A stretch of 64,000 nucleotides of DNA, from positions 320,350-384,349 of the forward strand of contig CAVWSU010000013.1 in assembly GCA_963757865.1 (NCBI GenBank), written 5' to 3'. Every line of letters begins with the position of its first letter. Position 1 is the first letter of the stretch. This document shows positions 28,530-40,859 of the stretch, piece by piece. Below the pieces are notes generated by a model. It did not search any database, was not told the origin of the DNA, and worked only from the letters and a program-made list of their open reading frames with translations. The position numbers and the translations under genes are program-made. The stretch comes from an uncultured Chloroflexia bacterium (lineage in GTDB: Bacteria; Chloroflexota; Limnocylindria; Limnocylindrales; CSP1-4).

Positions 28530-28557
28530 TTGACAAATAGAACGTCTGTTCTATCAT
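28530..28557 (+). promoter_or_regulatory. LexA-repressed promoter (SOS box) of imuA
   Basis: TTGACA-N16-TATCAT with TAGAACGTCTGTTCTA (GAAC-N4-GTTC) in the spacer. Confidence 0.88.
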
Positions 28558-28567
28558 GAGTCGGGCG

Positions 28568-29740
28568 ATGATCCGTCCGATCCTCCCCGCAGACGCCTCC
28601 TCCGGTGACCCCCGGCGGTCTCCCGAATCGCTGGCCACGGCCCTCGCACGGCTCGAGGCGCGCTGGGGGAGCGCCGCGATCCGGCTGGGGAACGGGAGCG
28701 CGTTCGCCGCGGGATCCGCGAACCGGGAAGGTCCCCCGCCCACGTCCTTTCCCGTCGAGGGAGCGCTCGCGCCTCTGCCCAGCCCCGCTCCTCCGCCTCC
28801 CGATCCGCTGGCCCCGCTCGACGATCGCGTCGTTCCCACCGGCTTCCCCGCCCTGGATGCGATCCTGGGACCGGGCGGGCTCGTCCGCGAGGCGCAGGTG
28901 ACGCTCCGCGGGGAGGGGTCGTGCGGCAAGACCACGCTCGCCCTGCGGCTCGTCGCGGAGGCGCAGGCGCGCGGCGCGATCGCGGCATGGCTCGACCTCG
29001 GCCGGGCGTTCGATCCCCTCGAGGCCGTCGGCAGGGGCGTGGACCTGGCCTGGCTCCTGGTGCTCCGCACCCCCGATTCCATCGAGGGACTCCGGCTTGC
29101 GGGCGCCCTGCTCGGAGGGCGCGCGGTCGAGGTCCTCGTGGCGGACCTGCCCGAACGGATGCCGGTGGACCGGGAGGAGCTCCTCCGCCGGCTGGCCGCC
29201 CGGGCCAGGCAGGTCGGTGCCCGCCTCGTGACGCTCGAGCCGGCGAGCCTCGCGTCGGCTTTGCGGGGTGCGCTCGCCGAATCCGCGGGGGTCGGCCTGG
29301 ACCTGCAGCGGCGGGCGTGGATCCGCGCCGGCCGGGACGTCGTGGGTCAGCGGACGGAGGTCACGGTGGAGAAGAACCGGTTCGGGCCGCCGGGCCGCCG
29401 GGTCGAGCTGGAGATCCGGTACCTCGACGAGGGAGACCGGGACCGGGGGGTCGAACGGCTCCTCGACACCCCTCCGCCGCCGAGGTCGGCATCGCCGCCC
29501 GCACCGTCCCACCCTTCACCGGAGAGAACCATCGCCGTTTCGACCCATGCGACTCCTCCATCTCGACTGGCCCCACCTGCCCCTCCGGCTCGAGCGCATG
29601 GCGCGCCCGCTCCCCGAGCTGGCCGTCCTGGGCGGCCATCCCTGGGACCCCGGACGGGTGCTCGACTGCAGCCCCTCGGCGCGCCGGCACGGCGTGCGCC
29701 GGGGGATGACCCTCGCGGCGGCCCACGCGCTCGTCCCTGA
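28568..29740 (+). CDS. imuA: RecA-like mutagenesis protein (ImuA/ImuA'-like)
   Basis: Walker A GEGSCGKTT, WLD...FDP, KNRFGPPG; SOS box upstream; precedes imuB. Confidence 0.75.
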   Translation: MIRPILPADASSGDPRRSPESLATALARLEARWGSAAIRLGNGSAFAAGSANREGPPPTSFPVEGALAPLPSPAPPPPDPLAPLDDRVVPTGFPALDAILGPGGLVREAQVTLRGEGSCGKTTLALRLVAEAQARGAIAAWLDLGRAFDPLEAVGRGVDLAWLLVLRTPDSIEGLRLAGALLGGRAVEVLVADLPERMPVDREELLRRLAARARQVGARLVTLEPASLASALRGALAESAGVGLDLQRRAWIRAGRDVVGQRTEVTVEKNRFGPPGRRVELEIRYLDEGDRDRGVERLLDTPPPPRSASPPAPSHPSPERTIAVSTHATPPSRLAPPAPPARAHGAPAPRAGRPGRPSLGPRTGARLQPLGAPARRAPGDDPRGGPRARP

Positions 29741-30854
29741 CGCCGCGTTCCTCGTCCCGGACCCGGACCGGTACCGGGCGGCCGCCGAGGCGGCGCTCGA
29801 CGCGCTCTCCGCCTTCGCCCCCTACGTCGAGGGCGAGACGGATCCGATGCGGGACGGCTTCGGCGGGGCATACCTCGGGATCGACGGGCTCGAGCGGCTG
29901 TGGGGCCCGGAGCCCGTCCTGCTCGGTCGTCTCGCCACCGCGATCGCGCCGCATGTGCCCGGGCCGCTCCGCGCCGGGATCGCCGGGTCCCGCTTCGGGT
30001 CCCTGGTGGCAGCCATCCTCGCCCGCGATCCGGTGCCGGGGACCGGGGTGACGTGGCTCGCCGCGCCGGCTGGCGGCGCGGAGTCGGAGGCGGCGTTCCT
30101 GGCCCCGCTGCCCGTGACGCTCCTGCCCGCCTCTCCGGACACGCAGGAGCGGCTGCGAGTGCTCGGCGTTCGCCGCATCGGCGAGTTCGCCGCGCTTCCG
30201 CGAGCCGCGGTCATGGCGCGGTTCGGTGCCGAGGGAAGCTTCCTGCACGACCTCGCGACCGGGTGCGACGGACGGAGGATCGTGCCGCGACGGCCCGCGG
30301 AGCGGCTGCGGGCCGAGGCGGAGCTGGATCCTCCCGTCGACTCGCTCGAGTCGATCCGCTTCGTCCTGCACCGGCTTGCGGATGCGCTGTGCGGCCAGCT
30401 GGCGGCACGCGGCGCGGGAGCGACGCTCGCCCGGCTGGAGTGCCACGAGGTGGTCGCCGGCCGGAGGACCCGGCCCGTTCCCGGGGCGCGGCCGGGGGAA
30501 CACGGCACGCTGCCGGACGTCATGGTCGTGGAGCAGCCGCTTCCCGGGCCGATCGCCAGGGCCGAGGCGGTCGAGCGGCTCCTCCTGGCGCGCCTCGAGA
30601 AGGCGCCGCCCGGGCGACCCGTCGAGCGGATGGTCCTCGAGCTCGACCGCGTGGTCCCCGCCGCCGGCCGCCAGCTCGGGCTGTTCGCGCCACAGGCGGC
30701 ACGCGCGGCGCGGCTCGAGTGGCAGCTCGCCGACCTCGCGATCCGCTTCGGCGAGGGCCGTGTGCTGCGGGCGGCACTGCACGACCCGGAGGCCCGCCTT
30801 CCCGAGCAGCGTTCCGGATGGCTCGAGGCGACGAGGGCGGGGAGGGTGACGTGA
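29547..30854 (+). CDS. imuB: Catalytically inactive Y-family polymerase homolog (ImuB-like)
   Basis: Y-family fold motifs (ARRHGVRRGMTLAAA, LPVTLL, LRVLGVRRIGEF) without the catalytic acidic pair (GGAYLG in place of DEAYL); QLGLF clamp-binding motif. Confidence 0.8.
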   Translation: MRLLHLDWPHLPLRLERMARPLPELAVLGGHPWDPGRVLDCSPSARRHGVRRGMTLAAAHALVPDAAFLVPDPDRYRAAAEAALDALSAFAPYVEGETDPMRDGFGGAYLGIDGLERLWGPEPVLLGRLATAIAPHVPGPLRAGIAGSRFGSLVAAILARDPVPGTGVTWLAAPAGGAESEAAFLAPLPVTLLPASPDTQERLRVLGVRRIGEFAALPRAAVMARFGAEGSFLHDLATGCDGRRIVPRRPAERLRAEAELDPPVDSLESIRFVLHRLADALCGQLAARGAGATLARLECHEVVAGRRTRPVPGARPGEHGTLPDVMVVEQPLPGPIARAEAVERLLLARLEKAPPGRPVERMVLELDRVVPAAGRQLGLFAPQAARAARLEWQLADLAIRFGEGRVLRAALHDPEARLPEQRSGWLEATRAGRVT

Positions 30855-31547: not shown

Positions 31548-31622
31548 GGCCAGCCAACGCTTACCGGCATGCGGCCGCACGTCATCCACCGCGCGCGATC
31601 GCGCGTCACCGCCGTCCGGCGG

Positions 31623-31730
31623 TCAGGGATGGGCGGGCGGAAGGGCGGCCGCCACGAACGCGACCAGCAGCACGAGGAGGATGAGGACGAAGATCGCGAT
31701 ACCCGCGAAGTCGCGAGTGGTGGGTCGCAT
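31623..31730 (-). CDS. 35-aa single-TM peptide
   Basis: MRPTTRDFAGIAIFVLILLVLLVAFVAAALPPAHP; TATCCT 6 nt before the ATG (leaderless pattern). Confidence 0.5.
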   Translation of the reverse strand: MRPTTRDFAGIAIFVLILLVLLVAFVAAALPPAHP

Positions 31731-31771
31731 GAGCGGAGGATACCGCGAGACGCAGGCGCCCGAGCGACGAC

Positions 31772-31859
31772 GGGCGCCGGGGAACCGGTCGCCCCCCCCG
31801 GGGCGAGCCCGACCGGCGAGGGGCGCCGGGGAACCGGTCGCCACCCGGGGCGAGCCCGA
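31772..31859. repeat. Two ~40-bp direct repeats
   Basis: GGGCGCCGGGGAACCGGTCGCC...CCCGGGGCGAGCCCGA at 31772-31812 and 31821-31859. Confidence 0.75.
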
Positions 31860-32045
31860 GCGACGACCGAACCCAGGGAACGCCGCTCGCGCTGCCGGCG
31901 CTGCCCGAGCGGCGACTGGTGCCCGGAACGGGGGTCTCGCCGCCCTCCCGCAGGTGCCTACAATGGCCCCAGGGTGTCTCGCACGGACCTGCGCGGCCCG
32001 ACCCTCGCGCGGCGTGCCGCGCCACGATCTCTGGGAGCGTGTCGC

Positions 32046-32978
32046 TTGACCGACTTCGCCATACGGACCGAGGGGCTGACGCGTGACTTCGGGCCGCTGC
32101 GGGCCGTGGACGGCATCTCGCTCGAGGTGCCGGCCGGAGCGATCTTCGGGTTCCTGGGGCCGAACGGATCGGGCAAGACGACGACGATCCGCCTGCTCCT
32201 CGGGCTCCTCGAACCCACCCAGGGCTCTGCCACCGTCCTCGGCCACGACGCGCGCACCGACGCGGATGCCATCCGCCAGCACTGCGGCGCCCTGCTCGAG
32301 CACTCGGGGCTGTACGAGCGGATGACGGCGCAGGACAACCTCGAGTTCTATGCGCGGGTCTGGCACCTGGAACCCTCGCAGCGTCGCGAGCGAGTGCACG
32401 AGCTGCTGTCCGGGCTGGCGCTGTGGGACCGGCGTCACGAGCTCGTGGGCGCGTGGAGCCGCGGCATGAAGCAGAAGCTCGCCGTCGCGCGGGCGCTGCT
32501 CCACCGGCCCGATCTCGTGTTCCTCGACGAGCCGACCGCGGGGCTCGACCCCATCGCCGCGGCGGCCCTGCGCGAGGACCTCACCGAGCTCGCCAGGCGC
32601 GAGGGCGTGACGGTCTTCCTCACGACCCACAACCTCGGCGAGGCGGAGAAGCTGTGCGACCAGGTGGCCGTGATCCGGTCCGGGCACCTGCTGGCCGTAG
32701 GACGCCCGGACGAACTGCGCGGCCAGGCCCGGCGCGACCGCATGGAGATCACGGGCCGCGGCCTCGACGCCCGCGTGACCGCGCTGCTGGCGGCGCAGCC
32801 GGCGGTCGAATCGGCCGAGAACGACGGGGGCCGCCTCACGCTGCGGCTTCGCGACGGCCAGGACACGGCGCCGCTGGTGACGCTGCTCGTGCACGAGGGC
32901 GTGGAGATCGACGAAGTGCGCAAGGGCGGCGCCGACCTGGAGGAGGCCTTCATGGCGCTGGTGGGGACCGACCAGTGA
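32046..32978 (+). CDS. ABC transporter ATP-binding protein
   Basis: GPNGSGKTT, WSRGMKQK, VFLDEPTAGLD. Confidence 0.92.
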   Translation: MTDFAIRTEGLTRDFGPLRAVDGISLEVPAGAIFGFLGPNGSGKTTTIRLLLGLLEPTQGSATVLGHDARTDADAIRQHCGALLEHSGLYERMTAQDNLEFYARVWHLEPSQRRERVHELLSGLALWDRRHELVGAWSRGMKQKLAVARALLHRPDLVFLDEPTAGLDPIAAAALREDLTELARREGVTVFLTTHNLGEAEKLCDQVAVIRSGHLLAVGRPDELRGQARRDRMEITGRGLDARVTALLAAQPAVESAENDGGRLTLRLRDGQDTAPLVTLLVHEGVEIDEVRKGGADLEEAFMALVGTDQ

Positions 32979-33712
32979 TCTCCGACGTTGTGACGATCGC
33001 CTGGAAGGACCTCCGGGAGGTGCTGCTGCAGTCGGGGACGCTGCGGAAGTCCCTGCGCGGCCTGCTGTTCTCGTTCCTCATCTTCGGCGTATTCCTGCCC
33101 CTCCAGATCGGCCCGGACCTCGTGCGCGAACCCGCCGCGATCCTGCCGTTCGCCTGGGTGCCGCTGCTGCTCGCGAGCGGGATGGTCGCCGACGGGATCG
33201 CGGGCGAGCGCGAGCGTCATACCCTCGAGACGCTGCTGGCGAGCAGGCTCTCGGACCGGGCGATCCTGTTCGGCAAGGTCGTCGCCGCCATCGCCTACGG
33301 CTGGGGCTTCATGCTGGTCAGCGCGGCCGTGGGGCTCGTCACCGTGAACCTCGCCAACACGGGCCACGGGATCCTGCTGTACTCGCCCGTGGCACTCGTG
33401 CTGCTCGGCGTGTTCGGCGTGCTCGGGGCCGGGCTGGTCGCGACCGGCGGGGCCCTCGTTGCGCTGCGGGCTCCGACGGTTCGCCAGGCGGCGCAGAACA
33501 TGAACCTGGCGATCTTCGCGGTGATCCTGGTCCCCGTCCTCGCGCTGCAGGTCCTGCCGGAGGATGTCCGCCGGCAGGTGTTCACCACGCTGAGCGGGCT
33601 CGACTGGCCGACGATCGGGGCCGGCGCGGCAGTGTTCCTCGCGGTCGCTGACCTGCTTCTGCTGAGCGCGGCGATGGCGCGGTTCCAGCGGGCGCGGCTG
33701 ATCCTGGACTGA
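32975..33712 (+). CDS. ABC-2 type permease
   Basis: AGERERHTLETLLASRLSD...LFGK motif; six TM segments. Confidence 0.88.
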   Translation: MISDVVTIAWKDLREVLLQSGTLRKSLRGLLFSFLIFGVFLPLQIGPDLVREPAAILPFAWVPLLLASGMVADGIAGERERHTLETLLASRLSDRAILFGKVVAAIAYGWGFMLVSAAVGLVTVNLANTGHGILLYSPVALVLLGVFGVLGAGLVATGGALVALRAPTVRQAAQNMNLAIFAVILVPVLALQVLPEDVRRQVFTTLSGLDWPTIGAGAAVFLAVADLLLLSAAMARFQRARLILD

Positions 33713-33786
33713 CGCCCGCCGGGGTTTCGGCAGGGCTCGTGGTGCCGGCCGGCGGCCTCGCAGGTCCAACCGGGCAGGTGCTCGGA

Positions 33787-33806
33787 TAGCACAGATGTTC
33801 TATACT
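33787..33806 (+). promoter_or_regulatory. SOS box and -10 element of dnaE2
   Basis: TAGCACAGATGTTCTA (one mismatch to GAAC-N4-GTTC) abutting TATACT; same geometry as at imuA. Confidence 0.75.
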
Positions 33807-33829
33807 GGCGTGCCGTTTCGAGGCCAGCA

Positions 33830-36800
33830 TTGCCGCGGTACGCCGAGCTCCACTGCCACACCGAGTTCTCGTTCCTCGACGGAGCGTCGTCCGCCGACGA
33901 CCTCGTCGAACGTGCGGCGCAGCTCGGCATCGAGTCGCTCGGGGTCACGGATCACCAGGGCCTGTACGGCGCGGTCCGGTTCGTCACGGCGGCCCAGTCG
34001 GTCGGGATCCATCCCGTCGTCGGCGTGGAGATCGAGCTGCTCGACGCGGCGGTCGCCGATCCGCATGGGCTGGTGGTGCCGGCACGACGCAGGGCGCGGA
34101 AGCCGGTGCCGGCCCGGGCGGAGTGGGAGCCGTGGGACGCGGACCAGTCGGGTGTCGATGACCGTGCCGTGGAAGCGCGACCCGTCACCGGAGGACCCGA
34201 GTCGGGGCGACCGGTCCATCCCCGGGCGGAGCGGGCCCGTCTTCCCGGCCACCGCGAGCCCGTGCGCGAGGACCTGCGCGGGGTGGGGGACGGCCAGCGG
34301 GGCCCGCATCTCGTGCTGCTCGCCCGCGACCAGGCGGGTTACCGGAGTCTCTCGCGGCTCGTCAGCGCCGCGAACCTCGCCGGCTCCAAGGGCGTCCCGC
34401 GATTCACGCACGCGCTGCTCGAGCGTCACGCGGAGGGAGTCGTGGCGCTTTCCGGGTGCCGGCACGGCGAGATCGCACGGCGGCTCCTGGCGGGCGATCG
34501 GGAGGGCGCGGCCAGGGCGGCGGAGCGCTACGCGCGGATGTTCGACGCCACGAGCGAGCGTGCCCGCGGGGGCGGGCGTGCGTCGGGCACGCGGGTCGGA
34601 TCCGTCGGCAACCGGTTCGCGGACCGTGGGATCGTCGGTCGAGGTTTCCCGGACTCGGGCGCCCCGGGCGGCGGTCGAGGCCTCCCGGCCACTTCGGCCA
34701 ACTCGGCCAATTCGGGCGACCCCGGGCAACTCGGGCGGCCTGTTCCAGTTCCGACGCAGCCGGGGAGCCATCGGCGGGTTCGTCCTCGAGCTCCAGCATC
34801 ACCTGTTGCCGGACGACGACTGGCTCGTGGCCGAGACGGTCCGGCTCGCCGCGGAACTCGGCCTTCCGGTTGCCGTCACGAACGACGTCCACTACGCACT
34901 CCGCGAGGACCGCGAGCTGCAGGACGTGATGGTCGCGATCCACCACGGCCTGACGCTGGACGAGTCGGCGCATCTTCGGCGCCCGAACGGAGAGTTCCAC
35001 CTGAAGCCGGCGGCCGACCTGCTCGCGTTGCCGCCGGGCGACCCCGATGCCGACCCCGCGATCCGGCGGGCCTGGTCGGAGGGCATGACGACCGCGGCCG
35101 AGATCGCCGAAACCTGCCGGGTCGACCTGGGATTCGAGCGCTACCGGTTCCCGGGATTCGAGGTGCCGAAGGGCGAGACGCCGTTCAGCCACCTCGAGGC
35201 ACTCTGCCACGAGGGGGCACGGCGCAGATATCACCCGCTCACGCTGCGCGTGCTCTCGCAGCTCGCCCACGAGCTCGACGTGATCTCGCAGACGGGGCTG
35301 GCCGAGTTCTTCCTGATCTGCTGGGACCTGATGGCGTTCGCGCGGGAGCGGGGCATCCCGGCGCAGGGGAGGGGGAGCGCCGGCGATTCGATCGTCGCGT
35401 ACGTGCTCGGCATCACGCGGGTCGATCCCATCCGCCACAACCTGCTGTTCGAGCGGTTCATCAACGAGGGTCGCACGAGCTACCCCGACGTGGACATCGA
35501 CTTCGCCTCGTCCCGGCGCGAGGAGGTGATCCAGTACGTCTACGAGCGGTACGGCCCGGAGCACACGGGGATGGTCTGCAACGTCATCACGTACCGGGCG
35601 CGATCGGCCGTGCGGGAGGTCGGCTGCGCGCTGGGGTTCCCGCGTCCGCTGGTCGACCGGGTCGCGAAGGCGCTCGAGACCTACGACTCGGTGATGGTCC
35701 GGCGCGACCTGGAAGCGGAGGGCGGATTCGCGGAGTTCTTCGCGCTGCCCGAGGCGGCCACCGACGACTCCGGCCGTGCGGCCCGGCCGACCACGGCCGT
35801 GCTGGCCTGGCCGACGACTCCGGCCGTGCTGGCCCAGCGGGCGGCGGGCATCGTGCCCGGGGCGGTCCTGGCCGAGCAGGCATCGGGAATCGTGCCCCAG
35901 CCGGCGACCCGGGCGGTCCTTCGGGCCGTGCTGGCTCAGCCGGCGACCCGGGCCGTGCTGGCCCGGACGGTCCTGCCCAGGCCGGCGCCGGGAATCCTGC
36001 AGAACGCGCTCCCATGGAACGGTATGTCGGTTACGGGCGCCCGGAAGGCGTTCCCGGGGGGGAAGTTGGGACGTCCGGACGCTCTTCCCCGCACGATCCG
36101 GGCGTGAGGGGCGGCCGAATCGCGACCCTCCCAGGACGGGAGCCCCGGCCGATCGGACATACCGTTCTGCAGGAGCACGAATTGCATGATTGGCATGGGG
36201 TGGCGAGTCACGGACCCGACGCGGGTCGCGAACCCGACCGCGCGGCCGATCGCGAACCCGACGGCGCGGCCGATCCCAGACCCGGCGGCGCCGATCCCGA
36301 ATCCGGCGGCGTGGCCGATCACGAACTCGACGCGGGATCAGGTCACGAGCCGGACCTCTCGCGCCTGGCGGCCGACCCCGGATCATTCGCGACCTTCGAC
36401 TCGGGCAACGGCACGGTTTCTCCGGCGGTCGCGCGAGCCGTCGCCGCCTCGACCGGGTTCGTCGACGAGATGGGTCAGCTCAACCATGCGCGCGGTGGCC
36501 GCTGGAGACGGGCCGGACACGGGCTCTCCGGCGCGGGCCCGGATCCCGACGAGCACGGGGATGGGCGGCGGGTGCGTCGCGAGGATATCGGCCGGACCGA
36601 GGCCGGAACCGTCCGGCACCGCGGTCGGTCGGACGACGAGGGCGGGCCAGGGGATACGCCGGTGAGCGTTGCGTGGCTTCGGGCGGAGCGAGAGCACGGT
36701 CCGGGCCGCTGGCCCGAGGCGCCGGGGTGGGAATATCGAGAAGCGCCGGGAACCGTCGGCGGCCGGCGGATCGATCCCGAGAGCGGCGTGCTGCTGCCGG

Positions 36801-39800
36801 CCGAGCGACGGATCGACGGCCCGGCCGAGCGACACGCGGAGCTGGGGCGGATGGTCGACGGAGCCGGACACCGGATCGACGGCGCCTCGGAGCCGGCCGC
36901 GAGCGGCCACGGACCCGCGAGCGGCCACGGACCCGCGAGCGGCCACGGACCCGCGAGCGGCCACGTACCCCGCTCCAGCGTCGCCCGACTCGAGCCCGAG
37001 CCTCCGCCGGAACGTCGTGCGGGCTCCACCATCGGACTGTCGCCATGGGAGCGCTGGCTCGAGCTGTGCGCGCGCATCGACGGCCGCCCCCGGCACCTCG
37101 GCATCCACGTCGGCGGCATGCTCGTCACGGCCGCCCCCCTCGTCGAGATCGCCCCCCTCGAGCGTGCCTCGATGGCCGGCCGGGTCGTCGTCCAGTTCGA
37201 CAAGCGCGACGTCGAGACGATGAAGCTCATCAAGCTCGACCTGCTCGGCCTGCGCATGCTGTCGGCGATGGACGATGCCCTGCGCGACGTCACGGCCGAC
37301 TGCGGGGTGGGACTCGACCTGGACCGCCTCCCCGAGGACCTGCCCGACGTCTTCCGCATGATCCGCGCCGCCGACACGACCGGCGTCTTCCAGATCGAGT
37401 CGCGGGCGCAGATGCAGACGCTGCCGAAATCAGCGCCGACCACCCTGGACGACCTGGTGGTCGAGGTCGCGATCATCCGCCCCGGCCCGATCCAGGGCAA
37501 CGCCGTGCATCCGTACCTGCGCCGCCGGCAGGGGCTCGAACCCGTCGCGTACCTCCACCCCAGCCTCGAGCCCATCCTGCGCGAGACCCTGGGCGTGATC
37601 CTGTACCAGGAGCAGGTGATGGAGATCGCCATCCAGGTCGCGGGCTTCAGCGCGGCCGAGTCGGATGGATTCCGGCGTGCCATGGGGACCTGGCGGTCGA
37701 GCCGTGAGATGGAGAAGCTCCATCGGAGGTTCGTGGAAGGGTGCCTGGACGTGAGCGGTCTCGACGACGAGCAGGCCGAGGAGCTGTTCCGGCAGGTCGC
37801 CGCCTTCGCGAGTTTCGGCTTCAACAAGAGCCACGCGGCGGCGTTCGCGCGGACCGCGTACGAGTCGGCGTTCCTGAAGCTCTACTACCCGGCGCAGTTC
37901 ACGGCGGGCCTCGTCAACAACCAGCCGATGGGGTTCTATCCGGTCGAGGTGCTGATCAACGACGCGAAGCGCCACGGCGTGGCGGTGCTGCCGGTGGACG
38001 TGAACCGGAGCCGGTTCCGGACCACGACCGAGTGGGTGGGGATGCCGGGCCAGCCTCTGCCCGAGGGATGCGGGATCGAGCACAGGCCGCCGGTCGTGCG
38101 CTCGTCGGGGTGTGTCGTGCCGGATCGCCGGACGCGCCGGCAGCTTGCGGCCGAGTCGGCCGAGGGGTACGGGGTCCGGCTGGGGCTCCACCTGGTGAAG
38201 GGGATCGGCCAGGAACACGCGGACCTGCTCGACGGCGAGCTGGAGCGTGGGCCGTACGGGTCGCTGGCGGACGTCGTGGCGCGCACCGGGCTGGCCGAAG
38301 AGGTGATCGAGCGACTGATCCGGGCCGGTGCCCTCGATTCGCTGGGCCGGCCCCGACGCGAGCTGCTGTGGCAGCTGCGCGAGGTGGCGACGTCGACGGG
38401 GCGGACGAAGACGGGCGCGACGACGACGGGTGCGACGACGACGGACGAAGACGCGCGACGACGGACGAGTGCCCCGACGACGACGGGTGCCCCGGGACCG
38501 GCGGGCACCTCGACGCGGACGGGTGGCCCAAGGCCGGCTCGGCACGTGCCTGTGAGGCGAGTCGAAGCGAGCTTGGAACCTGCCGGAACGCTGCCTGGCG
38601 GCATCCCATTGCCCGGACGCAGCTCGGTGCCCGGACGCGGCTTGCCGCCCGAACCCGGCTCGCCGCCCGAACCCGGCTCGGTGCCCGGACCTGGCTCACC
38701 GCCCGGACGCAGCTCGGTGCCCGAACCCAATCCTGCAGATCGCGTCCCTGCAGAAACGTATGTCGGATCCGGGGACGTTGCGGACGCTCTCTGGGCTCCT
38801 CCGGCAGGGTCCCGCGCCATCTCCGAGCACGAAGAGGGCACGAAACGGCGCAGCCTCGAGCCGATCGGGGGGCGGGGTGGCGCCGCCAACCGACATACCG
38901 TTCCCCACGAGCGTGTTTTGCAGGATATGCCGGGCTCCTCCCCGTCGCCGGGCTCCTCCCCGTCGCCGGGCTCCTCCCCGTCGCCGGGCTCCTCCCCGTC
39001 GCCGGGCTCCTCCCCGTCGCCGGGCTCTCCCCGCCGCCGCAGGCCGCTCGGTTGCGCCTGTCCGTGCCGAAAGTGCTAGCGATGTCCGATACGAGTTCGG
39101 GAGACGCGGCCCACGCCCAGCCGGGCATGGAGCCGGCCACCCAGGCCGCCCGGGGCGAACTCGGAATGGAGCCGGCCACCCGGGCCGCCTGGGGCGAACC
39201 CGGAATGGAGCCGGACCCGTCGGCTCAGCCGGGAATGGAGCCGGCCACCCGGGCCGCCTGGGGCGAACCCGGAATGGAGCCGGACCCGTCGGCCCAACCA
39301 CGGACGTATGCCCCGGCGGTCCTGGACCTGCGATTGCCACCCACCGACGCGCCGGATCTGCCGCCTCCCACCGAGGTCGAGAGGCTGGCCGACAGCTACG
39401 CGATCCTCTCGCTCGACGCGAGGCGTCAGGTGGTGGAGCTGTTCCGCCCCGCGCTGGATCGCCTCGGCGTGACCCCCAACGCGAGCCTCGCCGATCGGCG
39501 CCCAGGTCGGGTTCGAATCGCGGGCCTGGTCGTGACCCGGCAGCATCCGATGACGGCACGCGGCACCGTCTTCCTCGCGCTCGAGGACGAGACGGCGATG
39601 GTCAACGTCACGCTGTGGCCCGACCAGTGGGCCAGGTTCCGATCGGTCGTGCGGCGCCACGCACTCCTGTGGATCGACGGCGAACTGCAGCGGGAGGCGA
39701 GTGTCGTGAACGTGGTGGCGCACGACGTGCGCGCCCTTCCGGCCGTCGCACGGACCGCCGGGGGTCCCGAGCCCCCAGGTGGAATCCGGGCACAGGGCTA

Positions 39801-39822
39801 CTCGGGACTGCGACGAGGGTAG
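33830..39822 (+). CDS. dnaE2: Error-prone DNA polymerase III alpha DnaE2, very long, interrupted by three single-base frameshifts (~34770, 35779/80, 39026/27)
   Basis: PHP domain (ELHCH, TDH, NDVHY), YPDVDIDF, KLDLLG, FGFNKSHAAAF, C-terminal OB fold (AGLVVTRQHPMTARGTVFLALEDE) spread over three frames. Reconstructed length ~1,997 aa. Confidence 0.88.
35994..36190. mobile_element. 197-bp MITE/palindromic element, copy 1, inside dnaE2
   Basis: 37-bp imperfect inverted ends ATCCTGCAGAACGCGCTCCCATGGAACGGTATGTCGG and rc ATCATGCAATTCGTGCTCCTGCAGAACGGTATGTCCG (27/37). Confidence 0.7.
36899..36970 (+). repeat. 4 x 18-bp tandem repeat (ASGHGP) in a dnaE2 insert
   Basis: GCGAGCGGCCACGGACCC three times plus one copy with a single mismatch. 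Confidence 0.9.
38730..38926. mobile_element. 197-bp MITE/palindromic element, copy 2 (opposite orientation), inside dnaE2
   Basis: Ends ATCCTGCAGATCGCGTCCCTGCAGAAACGTATGTCGG and rc ATCCTGCAAAACACGCTCGTGGGGAACGGTATGTCGG; the latter matches the copy-1 left end at 31/37. Confidence 0.7.
38929..39035 (+). repeat. 5 x 18-bp tandem repeat plus a partial sixth unit lacking one C
   Basis: GCCGGGCTCCTCCCCGTC five times, then GCCGGGCTC-TCCCCG. Confidence 0.9.
39118..39300 (+). repeat. Nested repeats (PGMEPATRAAWGE / PGMEPDPSAQ) in a dnaE2 insert
   Basis: GG(A/C)ATGGAGCCGG recurs five times within longer duplicated units. Confidence 0.8.
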
Positions 39823-40135
39823 CGATCCGCGACGAGGGCAACGATCGGCGCCAGGAACGCGATCGACGCGAGGATGCGCGAGCGGCGCGAGAGCAGGCGA
39901 TCGGCGACGAAGACCCGCGATCGCCGAGGAAGGCGATCGGCGGCGCGAGAGCAGGCCATCGGCGTGGGTCGGCGACAGGGCGGCGATCGGCGGCGCGAGA
40001 GCAGGCGGGATCGTTGACGAGGGTAACCGACCGGCGACTAGGGCAGGCGACCGGCGACGAGGGCAAGCGACCCGCGACGCGGAAGCGATCGGCTCAAGAA
40101 CAGGCGATCCGCCACTGGGTCAGACGATCGGCGCC
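39823..40135. repeat. Degenerate intergenic repeat array
   Basis: Many copies of a GCGATCGGCG(A/G)CG-type core; CGGCGCGAGAGCAGGC appears three times. Confidence 0.65.
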
Positions 40136-40157
40136 GGCTGGAGCCCAGCGGTCGAGC

Positions 40158-40859
40158 TCAGCGGGCCCGCTTCGCCTCAGGGCGTCGTGCATCCCGGCGC
40201 TGCGCGCGCTTGCGTGCCTCGGCCGCCTCCCGGCTGCGAGCCTGGGAACGGCGGAGGAAGTCGCGGTACCACGACGCGAACCAGCCGAAGATGGCGCCGG
40301 TGAGAACGAACTGCACGAGCTGCCAGAGCGAGTACAGCACGCGGTCGGTAACGCTCATCGTGTCCAGCGTGGCGAACATGCCGACCAGCCCCAGCGCAAG
40401 CACCACGAACAGCACCGAAGCGACCAGGCCGAGGAGCGCCCCGAACAGGTACGCGCCGCGGGGGACCAGGAAGCCGACCGCGAAGAACAGCAGCGTCGGC
40501 TGCAGGAAGGCGAGCTGCACGTACAGCGACGCGATACCTGCACCGTTCACCTGGTCCCTGGGCAGCACCGCGGCCACGATCGCGCCCACCACGAGCAGCG
40601 CGAACGGGACGAGGATCAGCGGCTTTTCCCGCGCCACGGCCGGCGCGGCCTGCAGGTCGGCGCCGACGTCCGGCATGTGGAACCGCCCGATCGCCCGGCG
40701 CGCAGATTCGACCAGGGATGTCGGGGGCTCGGACGGCGAGCGCCCGGATGACGAGTGCTCGAACGAGGCGTCGCGATCGGCTGCCGCGACATCTGTGACC
40801 TGCGTCGCGCGATAGCGCTTTCGAGCTTCGGCGCGCTCGGTCCTCTTTGCGCGGGCCAA
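40158..40859 (-). CDS. Hypothetical 4-TM membrane protein with basic termini
   Basis: AAAGGAG RBS before TTG 40859; hydrophobic core flanked by Arg/Lys-rich ends. Confidence 0.7.
   Translation of the reverse strand: MARAKRTERAEARKRYRATQVTDVAAADRDASFEHSSSGRSPSEPPTSLVESARRAIGRFHMPDVGADLQAAPAVAREKPLILVPFALLVVGAIVAAVLPRDQVNGAGIASLYVQLAFLQPTLLFFAVGFLVPRGAYLFGALLGLVASVLFVVLALGLVGMFATLDTMSVTDRVLYSLWQLVQFVLTGAIFGWFASWYRDFLRRSQARSREAAEARKRAQRRDARRPEAKRAR

Follow-up and report, generated by a model that had tools for sequence, protein, structure and literature searches.

The DnaE2/ImuC group of DNA polymerases was defined by Timinskas et al. (2014; PMC3919608), who also described a link between the length of DnaE2 and GC content. 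DnaE2 is the engine of SOS mutagenesis, and work on its recruitment and restraint is still under way, for the most part in mycobacteria. Systems that rely on the ImuA'-ImuB-DnaE2 mutasome, such as that of Mycobacterium tuberculosis (Rv3370c), share with the locus described here the domain order of DnaE2, its end after the OB fold and its aspartate triad, as well as a separate DnaE1 and genes of the imuA' and imuB kind close by, behind a LexA-type box. Our locus lies at 33830-39822 on the forward strand of a 64,000-nucleotide stretch of DNA from an uncultured Chloroflexia bacterium (GenBank assembly GCA_963757865.1, contig CAVWSU010000013.1, positions 320,350 to 384,349); we refer to this whole stretch as the window and give all positions in its numbering. 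Its dnaE2 gene is predicted to encode a polymerase that is 45% insert yet has a catalytic core under strong selection, which shows how far interruption of such a core can go. One of its inserts carries short peptide motifs that are conserved across an order, and two insert segments derive from a dispersed repetitive element and are read in frame.

The host genome (G000) is a metagenome-assembled genome (MAG) of a soil member of Candidatus Limnocylindria (Chloroflexota), comprising 3.4 Mb in 22 contigs with 72% GC. Pfam matches at dnaE2 follow the order PHP (PF02811), DNA_pol3_alpha (PF07733), DNA_pol3_finger (PF17657), HHH_6 (PF14579) and OB fold (PF01336) and are scattered over three frames; the DNA_pol3_alpha match is itself split between frame 3 (profile positions 2-183) and frame 2 (positions 194-260). 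Using tblastn with five core segments, we placed the N-terminal part of PHP at 33830-34054 (frame 2, with a TTG start after GAGG), further PHP sequence at 34301-34546 (frame 2), the end of PHP with the palm and the first part of the thumb at 34773-35741 (frame 3), the remaining thumb and palm with the fingers and HhH at 37025-38389 (frame 2), and the OB fold and C-terminus at 39355-39819 (frame 1), followed by a TAG stop at 39820-39822. As an initial annotation of this DNA had claimed, all DnaE2 domains are present in order and include the PDVDID and KLDLLG motifs, found within YPDVDIDF (35481-35504) in the third core segment and KLIKLDLLGL (37223-37252) in the fourth. These motifs align with residues 400-403 and 553-558 of E. 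coli Pol III alpha, that is, with the catalytic residues D401, D403 and D555, and the catalytic triad is therefore intact. The OB fold corresponds to residues 591-664 of a 693-residue frame-1 open reading frame (ORF), which stops shortly afterwards and has no tau-binding C-terminal domain. The genome holds two DnaE matches, this one and an uninterrupted-core DnaE1 that is 43% identical to it (C21:291253-295593). Judging from the sequence, the locus encodes the cell's sole DnaE2/ImuC, a predicted error-prone polymerase of the SOS type. The DnaE1 has a Gly-rich, low-complexity linker of ~250 residues between its OB domain and its C-terminal domain.

As assembled, the gene has no single uninterrupted frame: from 5' to 3' the frames succeed one another as 2, 3, 2 and 1, with three frame changes. 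When three 1-nt indels are restored, as proposed in the initial annotation, a single open frame of 1,997 amino acids is obtained, of which 1,090 are core and 907 are insert. The missing single frame reflects the state of this copy or of its assembly rather than its family assignment, as orthologues of 1,863 (G006), 1,791 (G017) and 1,919 amino acids (public protein P0156, which has the same layout) are unbroken ORFs.

The core is interrupted at four sites. These are a variable loop in PHP (insert 1, 34055-34300; 246 bp, a multiple of three and in frame), the linker between PHP and palm (insert 2, 34547-34772; 226 bp, one base more than a multiple of three), a loop in the thumb (insert 3, 35742-37024; 1,283 bp, leaving a remainder of two) and the linker before the OB fold (insert 4, 38390-39354; 965 bp, again leaving two), the last of which ends with a conserved LDLRLPPTDAP (39322-39354). 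Inserts 2 to 4 had been located to within a few bases by the initial annotation, and the PHP loop is a further one. The sites were mapped by alignment to E. coli Pol III alpha, not by predicted structure; an AlphaFold2 model of a 1,030-residue fragment from a relative, built on an alignment of 50 sequences, had a mean predicted local distance difference test (pLDDT) score of 58.6, too poor to place the inserts or to judge whether the motifs fold. In the sequence alignment, the entry point of insert 3 corresponds roughly to residue 485/486 of E. coli alpha, which from published domain boundaries we take to fall inside the thumb.

We compared the inserts across 15 relatives taken from whole genomes and 80 further species (~95 species in all). 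Inserts recur at the same four sites across these species, and their length and sequence differ greatly: the PHP loop ranges from 138 to 573 bp (median 195), insert 2 from 0 to 165 bp (median 36), insert 3 from 33 to 1,545 bp (median 639) and insert 4 from 60 to 711 bp (median 105). Within the order, one family with small genomes is essentially insert-free (3 bp at insert 3, and a gene of ~1,140 amino acids), with a PHP loop still of 168-180 bp. Insert length is a multiple of three, with no stop codon, in 284 of the 295 intervals examined in ~80 species. For stretches of 0.6-1.5 kb this is beyond chance and points to read-through translation, and the intact orthologues of 1,863 and 1,919 amino acids likewise indicate that the inserts are translated and are not assembly artefacts, an outcome for which the initial annotation had allowed. 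Its yardstick of ~1,000-1,100 amino acids for a usual DnaE2 does not apply in this lineage, where the median over 64 related species is ~1,420 and the 1,997 amino acids of the window are the largest seen. When the 150 closest cluster representatives (clustered at 50% identity) in a library of 1.8 billion proteins were compared, only members of Limnocylindria were long through inserts. Other long representatives, the two longest outside Limnocylindria included, were considered as candidates for a giant DnaE2 outside the lineage and rejected as ImuB-DnaE2 fusions without inserts; P0101 (1,627 amino acids) and P0113 (1,547 amino acids), for example, join an N-terminal, Y-family-like ImuB of ~530 residues to a complete DnaE2 and are ~45-50% identical in the fingers region. 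A search that used insert 4 and the OB fold of the read-through protein as the query returned no near-identical intact copy, the best match being 86% identical and confined to the OB part.

The inserts are rich in Gly, Pro, Ala, Arg and Ser (Gly and Pro together 31%), have 13% hydrophobic residues versus 35% in the core, and lack the genome's codon bias. The tandem arrays reported in them earlier were recovered by Tandem Repeats Finder at periods of 9, 18, 24, 27, 39, 54 and 69 bp; almost every array has a period divisible by three. The tandem repeat next to the core differs by species (GPHPAA, AAHARAANP, SSGASG), which indicates fast turnover in whole codons. Six insert translations gave no Pfam match at E<=1, intein and endonuclease domains included; Rfam gave none at E<=1 over 33500-40300, a tRNA scan of the inserts was negative, and a PDB search with the insert sequences found no match. 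Introns, inteins, tRNA-derived elements and known domains were rejected on these grounds. That the inserts are intrinsically disordered, translated and changing in length by repeat turnover is, from their composition and comparison, a well-supported prediction. Directly 3' of the dnaE2 stop, at 39810-40088, lie further tandem arrays with units of 19, 20, 22, 36 and 58 bp, mostly not multiples of three, in apparently non-coding DNA.

The thumb insert contains four peptide motifs that recur across the order, RGL[VT]D.MGQLNH.RGGR, DD[EK]GGPGD[ST]P.SV[AR]WL, IDPESGVLLPAERR.D and SSVARLEPEP. All of them are present in the window, on the forward strand in frame 2, as GFVDEMGQLNHARGGRWRR (36455-36511), SDDEGGPGDTPVSVAWLR (36629-36682), RRIDPESGVLLPAERRIDG (36764-36820) and SSVARLEPEPPPERR (36974-37018). 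The residues of DDEGGPGD are each at least 90% conserved in a 50-species alignment, and DD[EK]GGPGD[ST]P[AV]S occurs once per locus in 66 loci, with free synonymous variation (four Gly codons, for example) and fixed amino acids. This combination implies that selection acts on the peptide. The thumb insert is not junk: its sequence retains several short linear motifs kept at the protein level across the order. Their predicted role is to bind other components of the mutasome (ImuB, ImuA', RecA or the clamp) or to regulate the enzyme in some other way.

A BLAST search of the inserts against the genome matched two segments, at 35995-36189 in insert 3 and 38731-38925 in insert 4, to a dispersed family. 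Iterated nhmmer searches recovered 30 full-length copies of ~205 bp with a variable middle on 10 contigs of the host genome (outside the window, for instance, at C19:397853-398057, C19:109891-110095 and C21:285046-285250). The copies have inverted ends of ~38 bp (TCCTGCAG...GGAAACGTATGTCGG / CCGACATACGGTTC...TTGCAGGA); the family ends read TCCTGCAGATCGCGTC.GCAGGGAAACGTATGTCGG ... CCGACATACGGTTC.GCAGGAGCGCGAATTGCAGGA, the central motif reads GAGCACGA, and the predicted fold is a long hairpin (z = -3.45). Most copies are flanked by CTT|...|AAG; these flanks prolong the palindrome and are not a direct repeat, and no clear target-site duplication is seen. The family has no Rfam match. From its size, inverted ends and dispersed copies, the element may be a miniature inverted-repeat transposable element (MITE); a REP/REPIN-like nature is also possible. 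Among 31 relatives searched by BLAST, dispersed copies occur only in the host genome and in its closest relative, G005 (14 matches).

The two dnaE2 copies differ from the rest of the family in position and size. The remaining 28 of the 30 lie in non-coding gaps, often between convergent genes, and the intergenic copies mostly measure 204-207 bp (range 173-226), whereas both dnaE2 copies measure 195 bp, exactly 65 codons. They share orientation (forward strand) and phase; the first reads PAERAPMERYVGYG...IGHTVLQEHELH in frame 2 and the second PADRVPAETYVGSG...NRHTVPHERVLQ. Five further species of the genus have the first copy in their dnaE2, again at 195 bp, and in the four with short-read assemblies (G001, G003, G006 and G010) it shares the frame of the upstream core. 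Moreover, both element-derived segments lie inside the intact P0156 of 1,919 amino acids, where they are read in frame.

The genes and operators around dnaE2 suggest an SOS context. Two ORFs 3 kb 5' of dnaE2, both open, resemble imuA' (28556-29740, with a RecA-fold domain at residues 92-198) and imuB (29547-30854, with an IMS/Y-family-like domain and a likely start at the Met of MRLLHLDW at 29547). Just 5' of the imuA'-like gene, a LexA-type box (GAACGTCTGTTC, 28540-28551) forms a perfect GAAC-N4-GTTC between TTGACA (-35) and TATCAT (-10); we take this palindrome to be the LexA motif of Chloroflexota. A second LexA-type box with one mismatch (GCACAGATGTTC, 33789-33806) is followed by TATACT (-10) ahead of dnaE2. 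Dozens of relatives keep TAGAAC-N4-GTTCTA at this place, directly 5' of dnaE2 and followed by TATACT or TATCAT. In the window only, the half-site at 33789-33800 reads GCAC versus GAAC in relatives, and the start codon at 33830 is TTG versus ATG in all genus relatives. All of these features lie on the forward strand, and imuA'-imuB and dnaE2 are best read as a split SOS cassette, predicted to be LexA-controlled. Between imuB and dnaE2, at 31569-33712, the cassette is split by genes for a DrrA-like ABC transporter ATPase and an ABC-2 permease. The imuA'-like ORF extends ~190 nt past the likely start of imuB in a tail rich in Pro, Ala and Arg, its coding signal gone after ~29400; such low complexity may be natural to the protein, or the true stop may have been lost by another indel.

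Each of the three frame-breaking indels falls within a repeat-rich insert, at or next to a short run or a tandem repeat. The base that the initial annotation proposed to remove near 34770 is better placed in the C4 run at 34720-34723 in insert 2, where a C is probably in excess: as C3, the 9-bp repeats read CGGGCGACC|CGGGCAACT, and the corrected downstream frame ends ...RSRGAI as in all relatives. In insert 3 a base is missing from the window somewhere between 35742 and 35995, as shown by the phase of the element relative to the third core segment in four short-read relatives. The first 27-bp unit there reads GTGC-GGCC versus GTGCTGGC in its sister units, which favours 35779/35780, the site reached earlier by the same comparison, with codon usage (below) leaving the exact place uncertain. 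In insert 4, the last unit of an 18-bp GSSPSP array reads GGGCTC-TCC versus GGGCTCCTCC in five sister units; the unit had been identified correctly and the missing C lies one base from the place first given (39026/39027), at 39027/39028. The restored reading, ...GSSPPPQAARLRLSVPKVLAMS, parallels ...SPPPAQPHLIAAKVAMS in a relative.

How these indels are to be understood bears on whether the cell has a working DnaE2. We consider it probable that they are consensus errors of long-read assembly and that the gene is intact and functional in the cell. On the terminal branch leading to the host genome, the ratio of nonsynonymous to synonymous substitution rates (dN/dS) in the core is ~0.10 at a dS of ~0.24, equal to that of intact orthologues; none of the 388 core columns that show no variation among 62 other species carries a unique replacement, and the 3.27-kb core has neither indel nor stop. 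The low dN/dS and the absence of unique changes at invariant positions indicate a functional gene. Among 80 species, frame breaks in dnaE2 were found in nine of 30 'MFD' MAGs versus one of 50 others (P = 4.5e-4, by Fisher's exact test), or, counted by insert interval, in 10 of 120 versus one of 175. The MFD MAGs are Nanopore-only assemblies that received one round of Medaka polishing (PMC12313526). As frame breaks track Nanopore-only MAGs, consensus error explains them better than decay does; judging from its 22 contigs and its relatives, the host genome may itself be a Nanopore-only MAG. Several points weigh against this reading, however. The assembly is otherwise clean, with one frame split in 65 orthologous ORFs (27.7k codons), a rate of ~1 per 80 kb of coding DNA. 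The inserts, with three indels in 2.7 kb, therefore show a strong local excess, which requires either a repeat-specific failure of the consensus or real mutation. Codon usage at 35750-35950 scores frame 3 above frame 2 and favours frame 3 to ~35950, which makes the precise position of the second indel uncertain. Finally, the changes of GAAC to GCAC in the operator and of ATG to TTG at the start are substitutions, which are not typical Nanopore errors; they would fit early decay, yet a functional gene could have them too. A comparison of 65 ORFs of a relative with the whole genome gave one further possible frame split, outside the window at C13:298318-299629, near the N-terminus of a 466-residue ORF.

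If the indels were real, DnaE2 could have just been lost, its loss tolerated or favoured, with decay at its very start. We regard such a recent pseudogene as unlikely, though it is the rival that most deserves weight: three frame-breaking indels within 6 kb, set against the low rate elsewhere in the genome, would fit it, as would an operator and start codon that no genus relative shares and the broken dnaE2 of G005 (L023, G005:C26:142000-153500). The G005 gene, however, carries more than 20 single-base indels, the core included, in a genome that is indel-ridden throughout, and so cannot arbitrate the three sites; that genome, in 30 contigs at 61% estimated completeness, shows a pattern typical of an unpolished long-read MAG. 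Selection on the core, the confinement of the indels to repeat tracts, their association with Nanopore-only assemblies and the open upstream imuA' and imuB all speak against loss, so that decay, the second option of the initial annotation, is possible only if very recent and has no support from the core. A gene switched on and off, in which heterogeneous indels in the population toggle DnaE2 by slippage or ribosomal frameshifting recovers the frame, is very improbable. The position of the indels in or beside runs and repeats suits this idea, as do single-base breaks in the inserts of several long-read-assembled relatives; yet the repeat units are multiples of three, so that slippage of units preserves the frame, classical phase variation needs longer runs than the 2-4 bases present here, a gene with three independent switches would hardly ever have all of them 'on', only one of 175 insert intervals in short-read MAGs is broken, and no frameshift-stimulating signals were seen, Rfam being empty. 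We give still less credence to non-coding inserts, whether as spacers between separately translated pieces, as introns or inteins, or as assembly artefacts, and consider this possibility largely refuted. Codon usage resembling that of non-coding DNA, and an element that elsewhere is intergenic, could suggest it, and the 28 intergenic copies raised a split gene with intergenic spacers as a candidate. The multiple-of-three and stop-free statistics, which extend to inserts of 1.2-1.5 kb, rule the split gene out; in addition, motifs are conserved at the protein level amid synonymous variation, both element copies are exactly 65 codons, searches for introns, ribozymes, inteins, endonucleases or other Pfam domains were negative, and the same architecture recurs in many independent short-read and long-read assemblies. 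Of the two options that the initial annotation had offered, a functional SOS polymerase with large, variable, disordered loops is thus well supported by the lineage-wide in-frame inserts, intact orthologues, selection on the core and LexA-type boxes; the motifs shared across the order, the two in-frame elements and a long DnaE2 as the norm of the order had escaped it.

Taken together, these results suggest an explanation in which DnaE2 would act as the catalytic subunit of an SOS-induced ImuA'-ImuB-DnaE2 mutasome and would carry translated, disordered inserts at four fixed sites, the PHP loop, the PHP-palm linker, the thumb loop and the pre-OB linker. The inserts would grow and shrink by whole codons through turnover of tandem repeats with multiple-of-three units, and would twice have taken up a MITE-like element of ~200 bp, kept at exactly 65 codons. 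More tentatively, and at a little short of even chances, we propose that the thumb insert is a lineage-specific regulatory arm: a disordered tether whose motifs recruit or gate ImuB, ImuA', RecA or the clamp, and whose spacers can expand by repeats and have absorbed a mobile element as coding sequence. If so, a C-family polymerase would have acquired partner control in a new way, and the element would be a clear example of a MITE exapted by a free-living bacterium. The presence of a motif-bearing, disordered thumb arm throughout an order of soil bacteria that are abundant suggests that control of the enzyme, or its binding of partners, has a further layer not yet studied. There is also a practical consequence, as GC-rich, repeat-rich coding inserts are a hot spot of residual indels in Nanopore-only MAGs, where the genes concerned are liable to be miscalled as pseudogenes or as split.

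Three kinds of described system invite comparison. Relative to the usual DnaE2/ImuC, in which the entire protein has ~1,000-1,100 amino acids, 907 of the 1,997 residues predicted here are insert, the thumb insert has conserved short motifs of its own, two segments derive from a mobile element, and a pair of ABC transporter genes separates imuB from dnaE2 in the mutasome cassette. In size alone, this DnaE2 is the extreme of the published trend of length with GC content (PMC3919608), which it extends; what is new is the motifs of the thumb arm and the mobile element read in frame. The inserts resemble the low-complexity tandem-repeat linkers of high-GC bacteria, to which the DnaE1 linker of the host genome also belongs, in being rich in Gly, Pro, Ala and Arg, in having species-specific units and in changing length quickly while the frame is kept. 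They differ in breaking into the catalytic core of a polymerase, at PHP and thumb, rather than lying at the joints of domains, and in carrying motifs conserved across an order. For the element, precedents exist in the RPEs of Rickettsia and in QMITE1 of Coxiella, MITEs found in frame inside protein-coding genes (reviewed in PMC10969869). Both are likewise short, palindromic, non-autonomous, many-copy repeats inside an ORF that are read through and retained across species, and the dnaE2 copies are accordingly a new example rather than a new principle. In contrast to these precedents, the element of the window does not belong to a described family and its host is a free-living, high-GC member of Chloroflexota; only two of its 30 copies are intragenic, both of them in already disordered regions of one gene, where they have been trimmed to exactly 65 codons. 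To the known cases of mobile elements retained as coding sequence, the window adds one from a free-living bacterium of high GC content.

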